From an uncultured Mycoplasmataceae bacterium (GTDB taxonomy: Bacteria > Bacillota_I > Bacilli_A > Mycoplasmatales > Mycoplasmoidaceae): DNA of 64,000 nucleotides. Of the stretch, positions 32,820 to 42,184 are shown in pieces (position 1 is the stretch's first letter; each line of letters opens with the position of its first letter). The position numbers were made by a program, and so were the translations under genes. The stretch spans positions 170,242-234,241 of the forward strand of contig CAMUZN010000001.1 of NCBI GenBank assembly GCA_947165235.1, written 5' to 3'. The notes under the pieces were generated by a model, which had not been told where the DNA came from, did not search any database, and saw only the letters and a list, made by a program, of their open reading frames with translations.

Positions 32820-33213
32820 GGGAGTGTAAAGATTCGACATTGTATTTTTGGTTTAAGTTGCAGTGGGGTTTGCCCCTTATCGCTAAGGCACAAATACGTG
32901 CAGAACAAGATCAAGCTAAGTGAAATGAAACAGCTTTCGTTTCACCACAAGGTCAAAATAAATATTATTTCGCAAGTCTTGCTTAATTAATATTTAACAG
33001 TCATTGGTGTTTTATCACTTAACACTAGTGATTTAAAATTAAGTGATATATCTAATTGATGCTAATAAATTGGATGAAAATAATTAGCTATTTTGGTATC
33101 GTGTTTGTTTTAATACACAAGAATACCAATGAAGCTTAAAATTAAAACTAAACTGTAGATGCTTAAATTCGAAAACCCAATGGAAGTGAGTGCGATTCTC
33201 ACCACTTCCACCA
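32820..33213 (+). ncRNA. ssrA: Transfer-messenger RNA
   Basis: The 5' end GGGAGUGUAAAGAUUCGAC pairs with the 3' CACUUCC-ACCA, including a G3.U pair. A T-arm GUGAG-UGCGAUU-CUCAC is present. An internal tag frame ends ...NKYYFASLA-UAA. Confidence 0.9.
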
Positions 33214-33240
33214 TTAAACGAACATATTCATATATGTTTT

Positions 33241-33330
33241 GGAAATGTACTCAAGTGGTTAAGAGGGCACACTGCTAACGTGTTAGATCAAGTAATTGGT
33301 GCGTGGGTTCGAATCCCACCATTTCCGCCA
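33241..33330 (+). tRNA. tRNA-Ser (anticodon GCU), CCA encoded
   Basis: Acceptor GGAAATG/CATTTCC, anticodon loop CU-GCU-AA, a long variable arm, and T-arm GTGGG-TTCGAAT-CCCAC. Ends GCCA. Confidence 0.9.
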
Positions 33331-34967: not shown

Positions 34968-37900
34968 ATGAATGATTTAAACAACCAGCAAAAAAAACAT
35001 GTTAACATTGGTTTAGATATTGGTACAACCTCTGTTGGTTGAGCTATTATTGATAATGACTACAATGTCATTGATTATGGAGTGAGATTGTTTACTGATC
35101 CTTGTGAAGAAAAAACTGGACACCCAAAAAACGAACAACGACGAGAAAAACGATGCCAACGAAGAATGCTTCGTAGAAGAAAACATCGTAAAGAACGTTT
35201 CATTCAATTAATTTTAAAAAATAAAGATATATTTTCTTTTAATAAAAAGGAAGAAATAATGGCGGTATTGGAACATGAAATTGAATTGCCTTGAGATGTA
35301 AAAGTTAGAGGTTTACAATCACAACTACCAAAAGAAAAATTAATCTATATTCTTTATCATTATTTATCTCATCGTGGTTTTACCTATTTAGAAGATAGTG
35401 ATCAAGAAAGTAATAAAGATAATGATCAAGTTGAGTTGGGTTATATACCAGATCAAATAAAAAAAATAACGAACGGTGAAAAAGAATTTAATAATTTATC
35501 ATTTCCTTCACAAAAGCAATGTTTTGCTTTTAAGATATTAAAATATCAAGACTCTAAATTAAATCGGTCTTTTTCAATGCAAAATTGGGAAAAGGAAATC
35601 GAAAAAATTTTGTCTAATCAAACATATTTATCTCATGATTTTAAAACTAAATATCTTGATTTATTTTCTACATATCGAGATTATAGTATTGGTCCTGGTT
35701 CTGAAAAATCGCCGAGTTCTTATGGGTTATATACCAAAGTATATGATACTAAGTCACAAAAATATATTGTTAAATGTAAAGGAAATAATTTGTGAGATTG
35801 TCTAGTTGGTAAATGTAGTTATTTTGATGGTTCGGATGGTAACAAACCAGAACAAAGAATTGAAATTAATTCCGCATCAGCTACTATTTTTAACTTATTA
35901 AATGATTTGCAAAATTTGCGAAAAATTTCAAATAGAGAATGAAGAATTTCTAAAAATGAAAAAAAGTTAATTTTTAGTTCTTTATTTGAAAAGGCAGGTG
36001 AATTGACAATAAAAAAATTGTCTACTATTTTTAAATGTGATCCTGATGATATTGATGGTTATCGTACAAGTGGTAAAAAAGGTAAAGGCAAAAAAAATAA
36101 ACCCATTTTTACAGAAGTAAAAAGTATAAAAATTGCATTGAATTTTTTGAAAATTCCAGTAAAGAATTTCGTTGAATCACTATGACAAAAAAATTTTAGT
36201 TACATTAATAAAATTAATTGCTTAATACATTTAAAGTCAACTTTCAAGAATCCGGAAAAATTGTATGCTGAATTTATAAAAATATTTCATGATTTAAATA
36301 CCAATTACGGTTTTAAAACTGGTGTGGAAATACATTCAAATAAAAATTTTAGTGATATAAAATCTTCTAAAAAGTATTCTGCATATTCACAAAAAGCTTT
36401 GAATGAAATATTTATTCCAAAATTACTTGATGATGAATTAGGGAATAATTCTGAATGTATTCGTCATGAATTTAACAAATACAATCCACAAAATATAAAA
36501 ATTAATTCCAAAACAATAAATATTGATTCTCTTAAAATTAATGAAAATATTTTTTCACCTACTGTTGTTCGATCAGTTCGGCAAACATTTAAAGTGATAA
36601 ATGCGATTTTAAAATCAAAAAAATATTCGAATTGTATTTTTGATTATTTATCGCTTGAAATGTGCCGAGATAAAAATACAAAAGAAGCACGAGATAGAAT
36701 TTATAATAACCAATCATTAGATGAGGCACAAAATAAAGAAATACAAGAATATACAAATAATTTAGAAATTTCAAACACAATTAAATTAAAAATTCTTCTT
36801 GCAAAATCGCAAGATTGATTTGATCCATATGATTTAAAGGAAATAGAAAAACCAAAACCTAACTCCAAAGATGATTTAATAAAATGGAGCGGGAAATATG
36901 AAATTGATCATATAATTCCTTCTAAATATTTTCATGATAATTCACGTTCAAATAAAGTTTTAACATCACATGAAAATAATTTTGAAAAAGCCAAAAGAAC
37001 CCCGTATGAATGATTAGGGAGCAAATCAAATTGAAGCGATTTAGTTGTAAATTTTAAACCGAGAAAATTTATTAATGGTGAATGAATTTTAGATAAAGAA
37101 AAAATAAAAAATTTTCAATTAACAGATGTTGGTACAGATATTTCAATCCAAATGAATCCACGGAAACTAGTCGATACACGATACACAACCAAATTTGTTT
37201 ATGATAATCTTAGAAATTTTTTTAATAACAATTCTTTCTATGATGTAAATAGACCAAAAATTTTTACGATAAACGGGGCGGTTACTAGTTATTTCCGCAA
37301 TAAATTTTGTAGTGATAAAGAATACAACTTTAAAGAATTTAAGAAAGATCGTGATAATTTCGAGCATCATGCAATAGACGCAATTATTGTCGCATTATTT
37401 TCGATATTACCACTGGAATTCGTCAATTTATTTAGAAAATTAAGTTCATTAAGTCAACAACCAAAGCAATTAGGTCTTACAAAGGAGCAAGAGGAAATTA
37501 AAGGCATTTATAAACATATTATTGATAAAAAATTATTACTTAATAAACAATTTGATCATTTAAAAATAAAAAAGATTGTTGAATGAATTAATAATAATAA
37601 GCCGAAATTTTCACGTATGCTAGAAACCCATAATAATATTGAATTTTTTAATGAATCAAATTATTCATATTCTTTAGATATAAACAATAATGTTATTACT
37701 AAAGAAAAAATTTCTATTTTTGATGATGGGAAAGTTAAGGATATTTTTTATTTATTTGATGATCAAGCTAAACGAAAAGAATCTTTTACAAATGCAAAAT
37801 GTTTACTAAATACTGAAACTATGGAATATTTAAAGCAAATTTATATTGATGGTAAATCTCAAAATAAAATTAATCCTTTTAAAGGGTATATGGAAAGGGA

Positions 37901-38432
37901 ATATGGTGATAAAAATCCATCTTATCTTAAATTTAATTTAAATGGTGTTGAAAATAAGATTAAAAATATATCCTTTGCTTTTTTTACAGATAAAGGAATA
38001 AATAATTATTTTGTCAATAAAAAAATTGGTTGTATTAATACTTCGTTTAAATCAGTTGCTATTGATTGTTATTTTAAGGATAGTAAATGGTTTGTAGTTC
38101 CTTTAAATGTCGAAACATACGATTTTAATAGAAAGAAGAAAAAGGACGGTTATTTCACCATGTTGCAAAAGATGAATTTAAATCCCAATAATTTTAAATT
38201 TCAAATAAAAAAAGGCCAAACTTTTATTGATAATAATGGGGATCTTTTTTATTATGTAAGTTATTCATATGTGAATAAAACTATTGAAATAAAGCCAATC
38301 GACCATGTTTATAAGGCAAAAAATGGGAAAAGTACTATTCAGTTATTAAAAACAATTAATCAATTTTTTAAAAATTTTAAAATTTGCGATCTTGATATAT
38401 TAGGTAACAAATATTTAAGAAAAGATATATAA
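34968..38432 (+). CDS. cas9: Type II-A CRISPR-associated endonuclease Cas9 (1154 aa)
   Basis: Seven track fragments (35082.., 35436.., 36003.., 36261.., 37152.., 37617..38432) share one frame with the ATG at 34968, and I read every gap and found only TGA. Motifs present: RuvC-I IGLDIGTTSVGWAII; Arg-rich bridge helix RREKRCQRRMLRRRKHRKERF; RuvC-II LSLEMCRD; HNH YEIDHIIPSKYFHDNSRSNKVLT; RuvC-III HHAIDAIIVA. Confidence 0.95.
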
Positions 38433-38433: not shown

Positions 38434-38440
38434 AATAAAT

Positions 38441-38561
38441 GTTAATCGTAAGATTAACAGGCAACAACAATGTAATACTGCACCGGGATAAGGCTTTATG
38501 CCGTAACCGGTTGAGTAAAATCAACCTAAGATACTATAACCATTTGGTTATAGTATTTTTT
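38441..38561 (+). ncRNA. tracrRNA
   Basis: Anti-repeat 38452..38489 (GATTAACAGGCAACAACAATGTAATACTGCACCGGGAT) is complementary, with G.U pairs, to the CRISPR repeat. It is followed by the nexus-like AAGGCTTTATGCCG, hairpin GGTTGA-GTAAAA-TCAACC, and an 11-bp terminator hairpin (38531..38556) plus TTTTT. The 5' end is not mapped. Confidence 0.85.
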
Positions 38562-38575
38562 ATTTCTTTTTGTTA

Positions 38576-39454
38576 ATGGGATGAAAAATAATCGATATTG
38601 AATCAAATAGTCAAGTTAAATTATTTTTAAACAATTTAATAATATTTAGAGATTTTAAGAAAATTACAATTCCTTTATGTGATATTGATGTGGTGGTATT
38701 TGATAATATTAAAACTACCGTTACAATTAGATTGATTAATCAATTGACAAAAAATAATATTCTTACAATTATTTGTAATGAAAAACATTTACCTTCATCA
38801 TTAATAGTTCCGCAAATTGGTAATTTTAATTCATTAAAAATTTTAGAAAAACAAATTAATTGAAATGTTAAATATAAGCATTTGAAGTGAAAAGAAATAG
38901 TAACCCATAAAATCTTAAATCAAGTCGAAATCTTAAAACATTTTAATTTAAAATTTGATACTCATTTTTTTAATGAAATTCTTTTAGAAATTAGACCATT
39001 CGATATTTCTAATCGTGAAGGTCATGCGGCGAAAGTATATTGACATACATTATATGGAAAAGAATTTAGTCGTCATGACGATAATGATATTAATCATATG
39101 CTAAATTATGGTTATTCGATTTTGTATTCATATTTTAGTCGAAGTATTATTAAAAAAGGTTTAGATCCAAGAATATCAATTTTTCATAAATCTTTTGATA
39201 ATTATTTTGCATTATCTAGTGATTTAATGGAAGAATTTCGTCCATTAATTGATTGATATGTCTATAAGGTAAATCAATCAAAAGAGAAAATATTAATTGT
39301 CGATGTCAAAACAAATATATTAAAATTATTTAATCAGAAATGTATGATCGTTGATAAAAAATATTTTATTCCTCAAGCAATCGATATTTACATTGATAAT
39401 CTTGTAAACGAGAGAGAAATACCAAAAGTTAATTTTTTATATGATGAATATTAA
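38576..39454 (+). CDS. cas1: CRISPR-associated endonuclease Cas1
   Basis: 292 aa in code 4; the track shows no ORF here because of 7 in-frame TGAs. Contains SNREGHAAKVYW, NHMLNYGYSILYS, FHKSFDNYFALSSDLMEEFRP. Confidence 0.9.
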
Positions 39455-39767
39455 GTATATGCGTATCTTATTAATGTTTGACTTACCAATAGAGACTAAA
39501 TCCCAACAAAAGCAATATTCTAGATTTCATAAATCTTTAATTTCACATGGATTTATCATGATTCAATATTCAATTTATGTAAAAATTGTTAATACAGAAT
39601 CAAAAGTACAAAGAGTTATTGATAAAATAAAAATAGATTTACCTTCACATGGTAATATTAGAATTTTAGTGGTTACGGATAAACAATACCAAGATATGAT
39701 TTTTTTAGTTGGTGATAAGAATTTAAATGAACAGATAAATACGAATGAAAGATATATAAAATGCTAA
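39441..39767 (+). CDS. cas2: CRISPR-associated endoribonuclease Cas2
   Basis: 108 aa with MRILLMFDLP (beta1 Asp) and QYSIYVK. It overlaps the cas1 end and the csn2 start. Confidence 0.85.
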   Translation: MMNIKYMRILLMFDLPIETKSQQKQYSRFHKSLISHGFIMIQYSIYVKIVNTESKVQRVIDKIKIDLPSHGNIRILVVTDKQYQDMIFLVGDKNLNEQINTNERYIKC

Positions 39768-40519
39768 AGATTGAAACCGAAAATCAAATTATTGAATGAG
39801 AATTTAACGGAATTAAAATTTTATCCGCACTAAATTCTTCGTGGACATTATTAAAGTTAAAACAACACATTACTAATCATAAAGTTTCAATTGATGATAA
39901 TATTTTATCCGTTAACAATTGTCTTATTATTAATGAATACACGATGCTTGCTAATTTATTAGGTTGGACTAAATCATCGCAATTTTTAAAAAACTTAGTA
40001 TTAGCTTTTGATGTTAATAGTATTATTAACACTGATAAATTAGATGAATTTTTGCAAATAGTGAACTTGAATTCTAATAATCTAGTTAATTTTAATAATG
40101 ATCCAGTTGATTTAATTATTAAGAATTTTCAAATTGATAAAGAAATAAAGATTGATGAAAAGAATTTCAAAAAAATACTAGATTGTTATAAAACAACAAA
40201 TAAAAAATTGACAATTATCATCTCTAATTGTCATTGATTTAAATTTGATCTAATTAAGAAACATCTTGCCTTTTTTAATTTTATTATTATCACTAATTCA
40301 TTAACATATATTGGGCTTAATAGTTCAGAATTAGAAGATTGTGTGGCCATTCAAAACTATAAAAATGATTGATATGAGATATTAGATTTAGGGAAATTAA
40401 TTTTATATATTGAGAAGGAATTAAATTCATTATTTAACCAAGAGAAATTAAATAAATATTTATCTTCTAATTTATTTGAAAATTGGGAAATTTTTAGGAT
40501 TTTGCGAAAAATTTTTTAA
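39761..40519 (+). CDS. csn2: Csn2-position protein of type II-A locus
   Basis: 252 aa in code 4. The ATG overlaps the cas2 stop. It is the fourth cas gene, directly before the array. The call rests on position and size; I recognised no motif. Confidence 0.6.
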
Positions 40520-40526
40520 TTTTGAC

Positions 40527-40691
40527 GTTCTGGTGTGGTATTATATTGTTGTTGCCTAACCTCCGCTGTTTCTCCATTTATACCGGTGTTGGTTCTGGTG
40601 TGGTATTATATTGTTGTTGCCTAACCTTGTTTAGTTGGGGGTTCATTGCTTCCATTGTTCTGGTGTGGTATTATATTGTTGTTGCCTAACC
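40527..40691 (+). CRISPR. CRISPR array: 3 identical 35-nt repeats, 2 spacers of 30 nt
   Basis: The repeat GTTCTGGTGTGGTATTATATTGTTGTTGCCTAACC occurs at 40527..40561, 40592..40626 and 40657..40691. Spacers are TCCGCTGTTTCTCCATTTATACCGGTGTTG (40562..40591) and TTGTTTAGTTGGGGGTTCATTGCTTCCATT (40627..40656). Transcription sense (+) is inferred from the tracrRNA orientation. Confidence 0.95.
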
Positions 40692-41015
40692 AAAACTTTA
40701 TCGTAAATTTCTAAACAATATTCCATCTTGTATATCGAGCATTGTATAATAAACTAACAAAAAGTTGGAAGCAGGATATGGTAATTATTTTGTGAATAGT
40801 GATGGAGATTATTCATCTTATCATATTATTTGCGATGTAATTTTTCGGAAGATAAATAATTATAAAATCGATATTTTATATTATTTTATGCTCTTTTTGT
40901 AAATTTGCACTTTCATTAGTATAGAGTATATCGTTGATTATCGTTATGATTAAAATCAATATATTTGTATTAATTTAACATAAATATTTAAGAGATTGTT
41001 ATGATATAATTTAAC

Positions 41016-41102
41016 AAAAGTGTTATAATAATCTTGGTGTGGTATTATATTGTTGTTGTTTATTTTTTAGAACTTTTAAAAATATAAAAGTGTTATAATA
41101 AT
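41016..41102 (+). repeat. 17-nt perfect direct repeat AAAAGTGTTATAATAAT (41016..41032 and 41086..41102)
   Basis: Read directly from the sequence. The copies are 70 nt apart. The first copy abuts and overlaps the start of the degenerate CRISPR repeat. Confidence 0.9.
41031..41065 (+). repeat. Solo degenerate CRISPR repeat (same orientation as array)
   Basis: ATCTTGGTGTGGTATTATATTGTTGTTG matches repeat positions 1-28 at 25/28. Positions 29-35 read TTTATTT instead of CCTAACC. It lies 339 nt after the last perfect repeat. Confidence 0.85.
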
Positions 41103-41125
41103 AAAAAATATGTTATAATTATTTT

Positions 41126-41150
41126 GTGACTAATATAAATCATTAGTCAC
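41126..41150. other. Perfect 9-bp hairpin GTGACTAAT-N7-ATTAGTCAC
   Basis: The inverted repeat was read directly. There is no adjacent T-tract on either strand. Confidence 0.7.
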
Positions 41151-41154
41151 TGTA

Positions 41155-41232
41155 GTGGAGGATTTGAACCACGAAACTGCAAAGAGCAACTGATTTACAG
41201 TCAGTGTGCTTTGGTTACTTGAGTACATTTCC
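41155..41232 (-). pseudogene. tRNA-like remnant (chimeric: first 16 nt identical to tRNA-Ser, Tyr-type GUA anticodon arm, defective D/T/acceptor stems)
   Basis: The minus strand reads GGAAATGTACTCAAGT-AACCAAAGCAC-ACTGA-CTGTAAA-TCAGT-TGCTCTTTGCAGT..GTGGTTCAAATCCTCCAC. The anticodon stem-loop is perfect and a GGTTCAAATCC T-loop motif is present. No 3' acceptor strand (CATTTCC) exists, and the D and T stems do not close. Confidence 0.55.
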
Positions 41233-41269
41233 AAAACATATATGAATATGTTTGTTTAATGATGGAAGT
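41217..41269 (-). repeat. 53-nt inverted copy (51/53) of the ssrA 3' end / spacer / tRNA-Ser 5' junction at 33204..33256
   Basis: The reverse complement of 41217..41269 is ACTTCCATCATTAAACAAACATATTCATATATGTTTTGGAAATGTACTCAAGT. Positions 33204..33256 read ACTTCCACCATTAAACGAACATATTCATATATGTTTTGGAAATGTACTCAAGT. Confidence 0.9.
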
Positions 41270-41295
41270 AGAAAAGTAAATGCAAGTCCACATTA

Positions 41296-41345
41296 CAAAA
41301 AATCCAAATGATAAATTTTATTATTTTACCATTTGGATTTTTTTA
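41296..41345 (+). terminator. Intrinsic terminator (potentially bidirectional) before fpg
   Basis: Stem ATCCAAATG (41302..41310) / CATTTGGAT (41330..41338), extended by the flanking A-run and T-run. It is followed by a T-tract at 41339..41344. Confidence 0.6.
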
Positions 41346-41356
41346 TAAAATAAAAT

Positions 41357-42184
41357 ATGCCAGAATTTCCGGAAGTTAAAACATTAGTTAATTGACTAAA
41401 TCACCAAGATTTCTTTAGTATAAAGATAAATAAAATTATTTTTATTGATGCTATTGTTTTAAAAAATTCGACAAAAAAGCAATTTATTGACTTTGTTTGC
41501 AATGAAACAATTAAAAAAATTAGTCAAATAGGTAAATTTATAATCTTTTATTTATCAAATGGAAAAATTATTACAATCCATTTACGCTTGGAAGGTAAAA
41601 TTTTTTACTTATCAGCTAATGAAAAAAGTAAATTTCCGCTAGTTGAATTTTACTTGGATAATGACAAAAAAATTGTTTACGACGATTCACGTAAATTTGG
41701 AACAATTAATATTTATGATAATTACCAAAAATTATTGGATTCTAGTGAAATAAAGAAATTGGGCAAACAACCATTTGATCAAGCATTAACAGCTAATTAC
41801 TTGCTTAATTGCTTTAAAAATAAGAACCAAAAAATTAAGACAACTTTGCTTGATCAAACTATCATTGCCGGAATCGGTAATATTTATGCCGATGAAACAT
41901 TATTTTTATGTAAGATTTCACCTTTTCGGAAAGCAAAAGATGTTTCTCTAGATGAATGCCAACAAATTATTAATAATTGTCGTAAAATTATGGCACAATC
42001 AATTAAAAATAAAGGAACGACAGTTTTTTCATACCAATATGCTCTAAATCATTCCGGTTCATTCCAAAAATATCTTAAAGTCTATGGGAGAAAAAACTTA
42101 TCTTGTTTGCGATGTGGAAGCACCCTTTGTTGAACAAAAATAAATGGAAGAGGAACAACATATTGTAAGAAATGTCAAAAGTAA
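41357..42184 (+). CDS. mutM: Formamidopyrimidine-DNA glycosylase
   Basis: N-terminal MPEFPEV (catalytic Pro2/Glu3), H2TH region, and C-terminal zinc finger CLRCGSTLCW..TTYCKKCQ. Length is 275 aa after reading two TGAs as Trp. Confidence 0.9.

Follow-up and report, generated by a model that had tools for sequence, protein, structure and literature searches.

Our analysis points to a possible Cas9-guiding regulatory RNA encoded just beyond a CRISPR array, in a 64,000-nucleotide stretch of DNA from an uncultured Mycoplasmataceae bacterium (contig CAMUZN010000001.1, positions 170,242 to 234,241; hereafter the window). The window carries a complete type II-A CRISPR-Cas locus on the + strand, in the order cas9-tracrRNA-cas1-cas2-csn2-array, tracrRNA being the trans-activating CRISPR RNA. 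Downstream of the array, 339 nt from its last repeat where a spacer would span 30 nt, lies a single degenerate repeat of 35 nt, which we call the solo repeat (41031..41065, + strand). The 15 nt that precede it, in the position of a guide, recur exactly over a promoter-like box close by, named P2. We favour, tentatively and at a little under even chances, the reading in which the solo repeat gives rise to a short-guide RNA resembling a CRISPR RNA (crRNA) that parks Cas9 on P2.

A candidate guide and its match at a neighbouring promoter

The guide-position sequence AAAAGTGTTATAATA (41016..41030, + strand) is an exact copy of 41086-41100. With the AT that follows, the identity reaches 17 nt, and this sequence, AAAAGTGTTATAATAAT, occurs exactly twice in the window, at 41016-41032 and 41086-41102. 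This confirms the 15-17-nt recurrence over a promoter-like box that had been reported in an earlier reading of the DNA made from its letters alone (the sequence-only reading). The second copy (41086..41102, + strand) is the putative Cas9 binding site, a 15-nt match (17 nt with the next AT) that covers P2, is followed by the 3' flank ATAAAAAAT, and lies 55 nt downstream of the start of the solo repeat on the same strand. The 15-nt match is 3'-anchored at the junction of guide and handle, and so involves only the end of the guide proximal to the protospacer-adjacent motif (PAM). It is the sole 3'-anchored match of at least 10 nt to the guide in the 64 kb, and AAAAGTGTTATAATAAT is the longest non-CRISPR local direct repeat of the window. 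We estimate from base composition that about 0.003 exact 15-nt 3'-anchored matches are expected per 128 kb of strand; because so few chance matches of this kind are expected per window, the 17-nt match is, on these statistics, not a product of chance.

Other origins and uses of this match were considered. Outside the two copies no similarity is left, and the edges are sharp, which rules out a decayed long tandem duplication around the 17-mer. An assembly artefact was judged unlikely by reasoning, since the k-mers usual in assembly are longer than the shared segments of 24 nt (between the solo and array repeats) and 17 nt. We also judged an ordinary immune spacer unlikely, given two perfect promoter boxes within the 30 nt. 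Finally, the promoters of cas9 and of the tracrRNA were rejected as targets of the guide: there is no other 3'-anchored match of at least 10 nt, and the tracrRNA promoter matches at 14/17 positions with a broken seed.

Promoter boxes are concentrated around the two copies. Perfect extended -10 boxes (TGNTATAAT) number five in the 64 kb, counting both strands, against 10 expected from shuffles. Four of these five cluster within 118 nt (41002-41119), all on the + strand, and the fifth falls within a coding region. Two occupy the spacer position, as the sequence-only reading had noted: P1a (TGATATAAT, 41002..41010) and P1b (TGTTATAAT, 41021..41029), the latter with a -35-like ATGATA at 17 nt. P2, also a TGTTATAAT box (41091..41099), sits inside the 17-nt target copy, and P3, the third such box (41111..41119), is surrounded by a 17-mer that matches at 14/17 positions. 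Since the guide reproduces a -10 box, P1b falls within it. The hexamer of P1a ends at 41010, and with the usual 7-nt spacing its predicted start (~41017) therefore coincides with the 5' edge of the match at 41016; a start at P1a would explain why the 15-nt match ends there. Judged by consensus, no promoter-like site in 3.2 kb surpasses P1b, whose predicted start (~41036) falls on the first bases of the exact core of the solo repeat.

An old repeat with a tracrRNA-compatible handle

The solo repeat can be aligned with the array repeat over its full length, and its core (41035-41058, 24 nt) is identical to array-repeat positions 5-28, a match that shuffles never produced. The sequence-only reading had placed this similarity correctly, at 41031..41058, but its count of 25/28 has to be amended to 24/24 in the core plus 1/4 at positions 1-4. 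Eight changes distinguish the solo repeat from the array repeat (G1A, T3C, C4T, C29T, C30T, A33T, C34T and C35T), and because it carries that many substitutions it is, to judge from divergence, old. The array repeat forms 30 pairs with the tracrRNA, in a register that is independently backed by compensatory repeat/tracrRNA changes in related loci, at position 16 in L002 and at positions 8, 9 and 29 in L018. In this register, all five changes within the paired part of the solo repeat (positions 1-30) keep a standard or wobble pair. Positions 1-5 pair with the anti-repeat end GGGAT (38485-38489) just as had been described, and the C-to-T changes at positions 29-30 leave wobble pairs.

The chance probability of the pairing at positions 1-4, taken alone, is about 0.05. 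A pair-preserving change is possible at 12 of the 30 paired positions; all five changes of the paired part are at such positions and each of them is that change (P = 0.0056), whilst three of the five positions in the unpaired tail are changed. All five C of the repeat have become T, yet G has become A in one case out of nine, at a G.U site (P = 0.003). The predicted duplex with the anti-repeat reaches -41.2 kcal/mol over 29-30 pairs, compared with -46.6 for the array repeat and an average of -10 for shuffles, which bears out the earlier proposal of a pair-preserving, tracrRNA-compatible handle.

Relatives help to place this repeat in evolutionary terms. These are uncultured rumen/goat 'Ureaplasma'/Mycoplasmoidaceae-type genomes, and the loci compared included L001-L003, L008-L012 and L014-L022; most Logan contigs end at the array. 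Terminal repeats lie 60-140 nt before mutM in L004, L015 and L009/L010. In L011, L014 and L018/L019, a decayed relic repeat is still found 65-75 nt before mutM, with 0.3-1.7 kb of foreign DNA between it and the working array. The solo repeat aligns with these terminal repeats (L004, L010, L015) and relics (L011, L014, L018, L019; alignment A2), and is followed by the trailer motif TAGAAC (41068..41073, + strand), which in the same alignment stands right after the relics of L014, L011, L018 and L019. On account of this alignment and motif, the solo repeat is best described as the ancestral trailer-end, and hence oldest, repeat by descent. Its 5' A-T-x-T also occurs in the L010 terminal repeat and the L014 relic. 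The duplexes of the relics with the tracrRNA (-11 kcal/mol in L011, -23 in L014 and -5 in L018) are at shuffle level. Since these orthologous relics lost their pairing with the tracrRNA, its retention in the window is not the default.

A proposed mode of action

In the reading that we favour, transcription would start at ~41017 from P1a, or upstream read-through would supply the RNA. This RNA would comprise a guide of 14-15 nt followed by the handle that pairs with the anti-repeat, and would be handled by RNase III and Cas9 as ordinary crRNAs are, from processing to loading. The guide, identical to its target, would then direct Cas9 to the -10 region of P2 (41086-41100). If ATAAAAA is an acceptable PAM, Cas9 would bind at P2 without cutting, because 15 bp are too short for cleavage. 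Bound Cas9 would block P2 and the adjacent P3, the presumed drivers of a structured RNA of ~220 nt that ends just before mutM. There are precedents for the individual steps: partial PAM-proximal matches are the repression mode of tracr-L, scaRNA (small CRISPR-Cas-associated RNA) and CreA (10.1101/2023.03.03.530964), and cellular RNAs with repeat-like stretches become Cas9 guides (PMC8224270). The pair-preserving changes in an old repeat, the match at the PAM-proximal end only, the promoter cluster, and the agreement of the start predicted for P1a with the edge of the match make such a regulator plausible.

P2 and P3 sit in a part of the intergenic region that aligns with the trailer and mutM-upstream region of relatives. 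The predicted P2/P3 transcript runs through a stretch of ~218 nt (41126..41343, + strand) that relatives do not have between the ancestral trailer and mutM; the last 15 nt before the mutM ATG are conserved with them. This insert contains a 9-bp 5' hairpin, an inverted and degraded copy of tmRNA/tRNA-Ser sequence (41146-41270), and a strong bidirectional terminator (41298-41346). The copy, read on the minus strand, comprises the tmRNA 3' end, a 27-nt spacer and the first 16 nt of tRNA-Ser(GCU); 36 nt of it are exact (41217-41252 on the minus strand equal 33221-33256), and it lies ~8 kb from the original (33200-33330), on the other side of the cas locus. By eye it keeps a perfect Tyr-like anticodon arm. 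A tRNA gene at 41146-41233 (minus strand) was rejected, with no ARAGORN call and no Rfam tRNA match even at E up to 10. Folding of 41126-41350 gives z-scores against shuffles of -7.3 on the + strand and -6.4 on the - strand, so that each strand folds far better than its shuffles, and the only open reading frame (ORF) in the transcript is a weak one of 22 codons. Transcription from P2/P3 would yield a stable antisense RNA to the tmRNA/tRNA-Ser junction, ~220 nt long. The terminator before mutM is a 13-bp, bidirectional one, and the -10-like TATAAA of mutM itself predicts a leaderless mRNA.

A more elaborate version of this scheme, to which we give a very low probability, is a Cas9-based guard in the manner of CreTA, with the solo-repeat RNA acting as an antitoxin that shuts P2/P3 through Cas9. 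Loss or inhibition of Cas9, of the tracrRNA or of the repeat would then let P2/P3 fire. The resulting ~220-nt RNA would be antisense to the tmRNA-tRNA-Ser(GCU) precursor, through 36 exact nucleotides and partial flanking matches, and blocked maturation of an essential tRNA, of tmRNA or of both could arrest the cell.

Alternative explanations

Several observations weigh against a Cas9-guiding role. The 17-nt match overruns the border between guide and repeat by 2 nt into the repeat, which suits a copied patch no less than a spacer acquired by Cas1-Cas2. Patchwork repair is indeed active here, because the same strain-specific stretch holds a second copied patch, the tmRNA/tRNA-Ser piece. No hairpin terminator was found after the solo repeat, only a T run. 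P1b, with its better -35, would yield a guide-less RNA and could occlude P1a. The selection for tracrRNA pairing could predate the orphaning of the repeat, from the time when it still ended the array. Finally, the module is known from one genome only. L008 is the sole other contig of the same species that spans the stretch (its Cas2 is identical and its flanks are 98.4% and 97.7% identical); it has a single repeat after csn2, then 656 nt of mostly unrelated DNA up to mutM, and lacks a second repeat, the TGNTATAAT boxes and the tRNA-like patch. Between the flanks it aligns with the window at 40657-40880 only, at 68% identity. Nor was a guide/target pair, i.e. a 3'-anchored match of pre-repeat sequence to nearby DNA, found in any relative compared. 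The module is thus, as far as these genomes tell, strain-specific. The Cas9-guiding regulatory crRNA proposed in the sequence-only reading is supported as regards handle pairing, promoters and PAM-proximal match, but not as regards conservation.

As regards the PAM, eight viral scans gave a single imperfect protospacer, L013 (23/30, flank TTTGTG); BLAST of 42 spacers against GenBank phages gave no match, and comparison of all 64 spacers with all fetched loci brought nothing new. Overlapping spacers of L004 yielded two flanks, AATAAAAAGG, which is A-rich and reliable, and TG. No PAM consensus emerged from the viral scans, the phage BLAST or the spacer overlaps, and this too counts against the proposed guide, as does the dissimilarity of the flanks TG.. 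and TTTGTG to that of the target. The target flank ATAAAAA resembles AATAAAAAGG and differs from the self flanks ATCTTGG and GTTCTGG; its likeness to AATAAAAAGG is a weak hint of a compatible PAM.

These observations can also be accommodated by a functionless scar, which we consider nearly as likely as the favoured reading. The trailer-end repeat would have been orphaned by insertion or rearrangement, the 17-nt identity would be a copied patch, and any RNA made from it would lack a selected role. The identity could then be a duplicate of the trailer promoter, or the PAM-proximal remnant of a self-derived oldest spacer, whose other half could have been replaced on escape from autoimmunity. This explanation draws on much of what precedes: the descent from a terminal repeat, in the same place, with the same TAGAAC motif and the 5' A-T-x-T of the L010 terminal repeat and the L014 relic; the insertions between array and old end repeat in L011, L014 and L018; the lack of the module in the nearest strain, L008; the mosaic stretch with its 36-nt exact copy of the tmRNA/tRNA-Ser junction and its third promoter copy; the 2-nt overrun across the spacer/repeat border; the competition of P1b with P1a; and a selection on pairing that could date from the repeat's time at the array end. 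Self-targeting spacers are reportedly mostly accidents with damaged neighbourhoods, a finding ascribed to Stern et al. in 2010. Yet a scar does not readily explain why the substitutions of the paired part are exclusively pair-preserving, whereas the relics of relatives decayed freely, nor why exact patches of 17 nt and 24 nt, independent of each other and both with sharp edges, should be found at a distance of 2 nt. It also leaves aside that a perfect extended -10 box, of which there are only five in the 64 kb, is placed exactly to start the matching segment, and that the match is confined to the PAM-proximal end, the functional pattern of known repressor guides.

An alternative that we regard as improbable keeps the repeat but discards the guide. 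If P1b dominated, with a start at ~41036, a guide-less handle would pair with the tracrRNA and occupy Cas9, and this repeat-only RNA would be a host-encoded damper of Cas9, akin to the phage Racr (RNA anti-CRISPR) or solitary-repeat RNAs. The quality of P1b (ATGATA, 17-nt spacer, TG, TATAAT), unsurpassed in 3.2 kb, the position of its predicted start on the first bases of the exact core, and the retained pairing of the handle all fit this idea, and viral solitary repeats typically lie directly 3' of a promoter (PMC10651486). However, the 15-17-nt match to P2 would be left unexplained, save as the source of the -10 box, and the element is chromosomal, inside a cas locus, and derived from the array's own end repeat rather than carried by a mobile element. 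An RNA anti-CRISPR this simple is moreover not documented for Cas9; preprints of 2026 describe phage RNAs resembling single guide RNAs (sgRNAs). Pure coincidence, in which a decayed repeat happens to adjoin a chance 17-nt recurrence in AT-rich DNA, is effectively refuted. The window has 26% G+C, exact 13-15-nt matches to AT-rich spacers are common in it, and other local repeats exist (four of 14 nt and one of 15 nt). Against this stand the very low expectation for an anchored match, the fact that the guide's one match of at least 10 nt in the window falls 55 nt away on the same strand, and the clustering of four of the five perfect extended -10 boxes here. The null model of the sequence-only reading was therefore half right: the decayed terminal repeat holds by descent, the chance duplication does not.

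Relation to known systems

The working principle proposed for the solo-repeat RNA is closest to that of scaRNA and of the CreA/CreR mini-CRISPRs. As with the scaRNA of Francisella novicida (type II-B), we would be dealing with a small RNA of the cas9 locus, outside the array, transcribed from a promoter of its own, in which a degenerate repeat base-pairs with the tracrRNA and a short guide partially matches an endogenous promoter or 5' region, so that Cas9 is predicted to bind and not to cut. The location, between csn2 and mutM, and the complementarity to the tracrRNA are those of a scaRNA; the two perfect extended -10 boxes upstream are putative promoters, and the 15-nt PAM-proximal match marks a candidate target. 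Here, however, the handle is the array's orphaned trailer repeat, downstream of the array, in a type II-A locus with csn2; the target is 55 nt off in the same intergenic region, and no terminator was found. About 6% of type II loci have mini-arrays besides the tracrRNA, and in silico predictions have placed scaRNAs in further type II loci, II-A ones and that of Mycoplasma gallisepticum among them (PMC6199352).

The tracr-L of Streptococcus pyogenes (type II-A) represses at a promoter via a match of ~11 bp (10.1101/2023.03.03.530964), and is thus a natural type II-A Cas9 repressor that acts by a short promoter match, as predicted here. It is, however, a long form of the tracrRNA, a natural single guide, and it represses the cas9 promoter, whereas the RNA proposed here would be crRNA-like, would depend on a tracrRNA encoded apart from it, and lacks a match at the cas9 promoter. 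In CreA/CreT (CreTA) and CreR, as in the module, a degenerate repeat accompanies a pseudo-spacer whose PAM-proximal end partly matches the promoter of a small gene next to it, and the whole is a strain-variable unit in or beside a cas locus. These systems (types I and V-A) work through Cascade or Cas12a and without a tracrRNA, two repeats usually flank CreA, and their proven targets are a toxin (CreT) or a cas promoter; here the adjacent transcript is at most a putative toxin and the predicted effector is Cas9. Membership in CreTA was rejected: the match between pseudo-spacer and promoter fits, but the locus is of type II-A (cas9, tracrRNA, csn2), with Cas9 and not Cascade as effector.

Three other classes of elements deserve comparison. 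Degenerate terminal repeats resemble the solo repeat in strand, in their position downstream of the array and in the decayed 3' end, and the terminal repeats of relatives are its orthologs. The solo repeat differs from them in lying ~340 nt, and not 30, from the previous repeat, in being preceded by two consensus promoters, and in having kept its pairing with the tracrRNA where the counterpart relics of relatives decayed. Racrs and solitary repeat units (PMC10651486) also consist of a single repeat immediately downstream of a promoter. They are, however, borne by viruses and plasmids and inhibit types I and V-A, whereas the solo repeat is chromosomal, belongs to the host cas9 locus and has a guide-like match. 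A viral solitary repeat was rejected, as the element lies between csn2 and mutM, its repeat was not found in IMG/VR and there are no phage genes nearby. The non-canonical crRNAs of Campylobacter jejuni (PMC8224270) show that a transcript stretch pairing with the tracrRNA can be processed into a Cas9 guide, but those are chance products of mRNAs, whereas the handle here truly descends from the repeat and pairs almost completely.

The CRISPR-Cas locus and its relatives

The window has 25.9% G+C, is Mollicutes-like, and reads TGA as Trp. Its cas9 (34968..38432, + strand, 1154 aa, an ORF under genetic code table 4) encodes a protein identical to P0001, on which the Pfam domains HNH_4 and RuvC_III were found, and an NCBI contig in public data encodes the same Cas9. 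A genome scan with Cas9 gave no match, and a search with the repeat pattern found two genome loci and two metagenome loci. The tracrRNA (~38440..38566, + strand) has a promoter (GTAACA-18-TATAAT) and a terminator, both read from the sequence; its parts are a 5' hairpin (38440-38459), the anti-repeat (38460-38489), a nexus-like AAGGCTTTATGCCG and the terminator (38528-38559). The 8-bp hairpin TGTTAATC...GATTAACA at 38440-38459 seems to open the tracrRNA, directly 5' of the anti-repeat, and is kept with loop changes in L001, L002, L017 and L011 (alignment A3). The table-4 ORFs of cas1, cas2 and csn2 follow (38576..40519, + strand), with Cas1 and Cas2 Pfam matches on orthologous loci.

The CRISPR array (40527..40691, + strand) starts 7 bases past csn2 and has three repeats of 35 nt and two spacers of 30 nt, the repeat unit being set from the 41-repeat array of L004. 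Every array repeat contains an extended -10-like TGGTATTAT (e.g., at 40536-40544), which is TGGTATCAT in most relatives and is reminiscent of the promoters within array repeats of type II-C. Repeat variants differ between strains, the window having T16 with ...CCTAACC and L008 (1388-1422) C16 with ...CCTAAAC, although cas1-csn2 are 98% identical. Since the old relics of L011 and L014 have T16, whereas the working arrays there have C16, T16 looks like the ancestral state; a matching A-to-G change is found in the tracrRNA of L002.

Between array and solo repeat lies strain-variable non-coding DNA (40692..41000), with no long ORFs and no decayed repeats inside. A decayed array in 40693-41030 was rejected, its best repeat match being 18/35, i.e. 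chance level. Right after the last array repeat there is a hydrophobic mini-ORF, at 40778-40840 in the window (20 aa, MVIILWIVMEIIHLIILFAM) and at 1506-1574 in L008 (MIDLIFCWLVMEAIHIILLFAI). Its peptide is conserved between the two although the DNA is only 68% identical, between flanks that are 98% identical, and it looks like a type I toxin. L008 has a second small hydrophobic ORF, MTVIAGWLIIVGITLWFSIILS, with a strong ribosome-binding site. Downstream of the solo repeat, mutM (41357..42184, + strand), encoding formamidopyrimidine-DNA glycosylase, is the gene after the array in all relatives.

Lone repeats of another kind occur elsewhere. In L006 (1658-1696) and L007 (806-844), on the minus strand of these loci, a single canonical repeat directly follows phage-like genes (PAPS reductase phrog_424 and an NrdD-like fragment) and is itself followed by a 58-aa basic ORF. 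The same canonical repeat is fused to a truncated cas9 pseudogene in L005 (3501-3535). The segment downstream of these lone repeats also follows the truncated last repeat of L011 and L012, which suggests a mobile element that carries, or recombines through, the CRISPR repeat. The last repeat breaks off exactly after its position 28 in both L011 (3160-3187) and L012 (174-201); beyond it come an intrinsic terminator and 1.7 kb of inserted DNA, which has two ORFs on the minus strand. The sole array spacer of L011 (3130-3159, GGCGTCGCTGATCGCCACGAATGCGTTCAC) has 60% G+C, far from the ~26% of the host, which suggests that its target belongs to a very dissimilar organism or element.

Implications

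Few natural Cas9 regulators have been described to our knowledge: the II-B scaRNA, the tracr-L of S. pyogenes and one II-C scaRNA. We know of none from Mollicutes, nor of any built from an array's own end repeat. If real, the regulator would be another case of the logic of scaRNA, CreA and tracr-L, and would involve no new principle. If the module is instead a scar, it is a clean example of a disarmed self-matching spacer, and a warning not to take guide-like matches by orphan repeats for regulation unless conservation or RNA data back them. If the favoured reading is true, it would mean that the decaying end of an array can become a regulator by keeping its handle, gaining a promoter and retaining a 15-nt self-match. 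The outcome would be a compact natural Cas9 RNA with a truncated guide, which lets the protein bind but not cut, and Cas9 in this bacterium would be tied to the control of a transcript in the ancestral upstream region of mutM.

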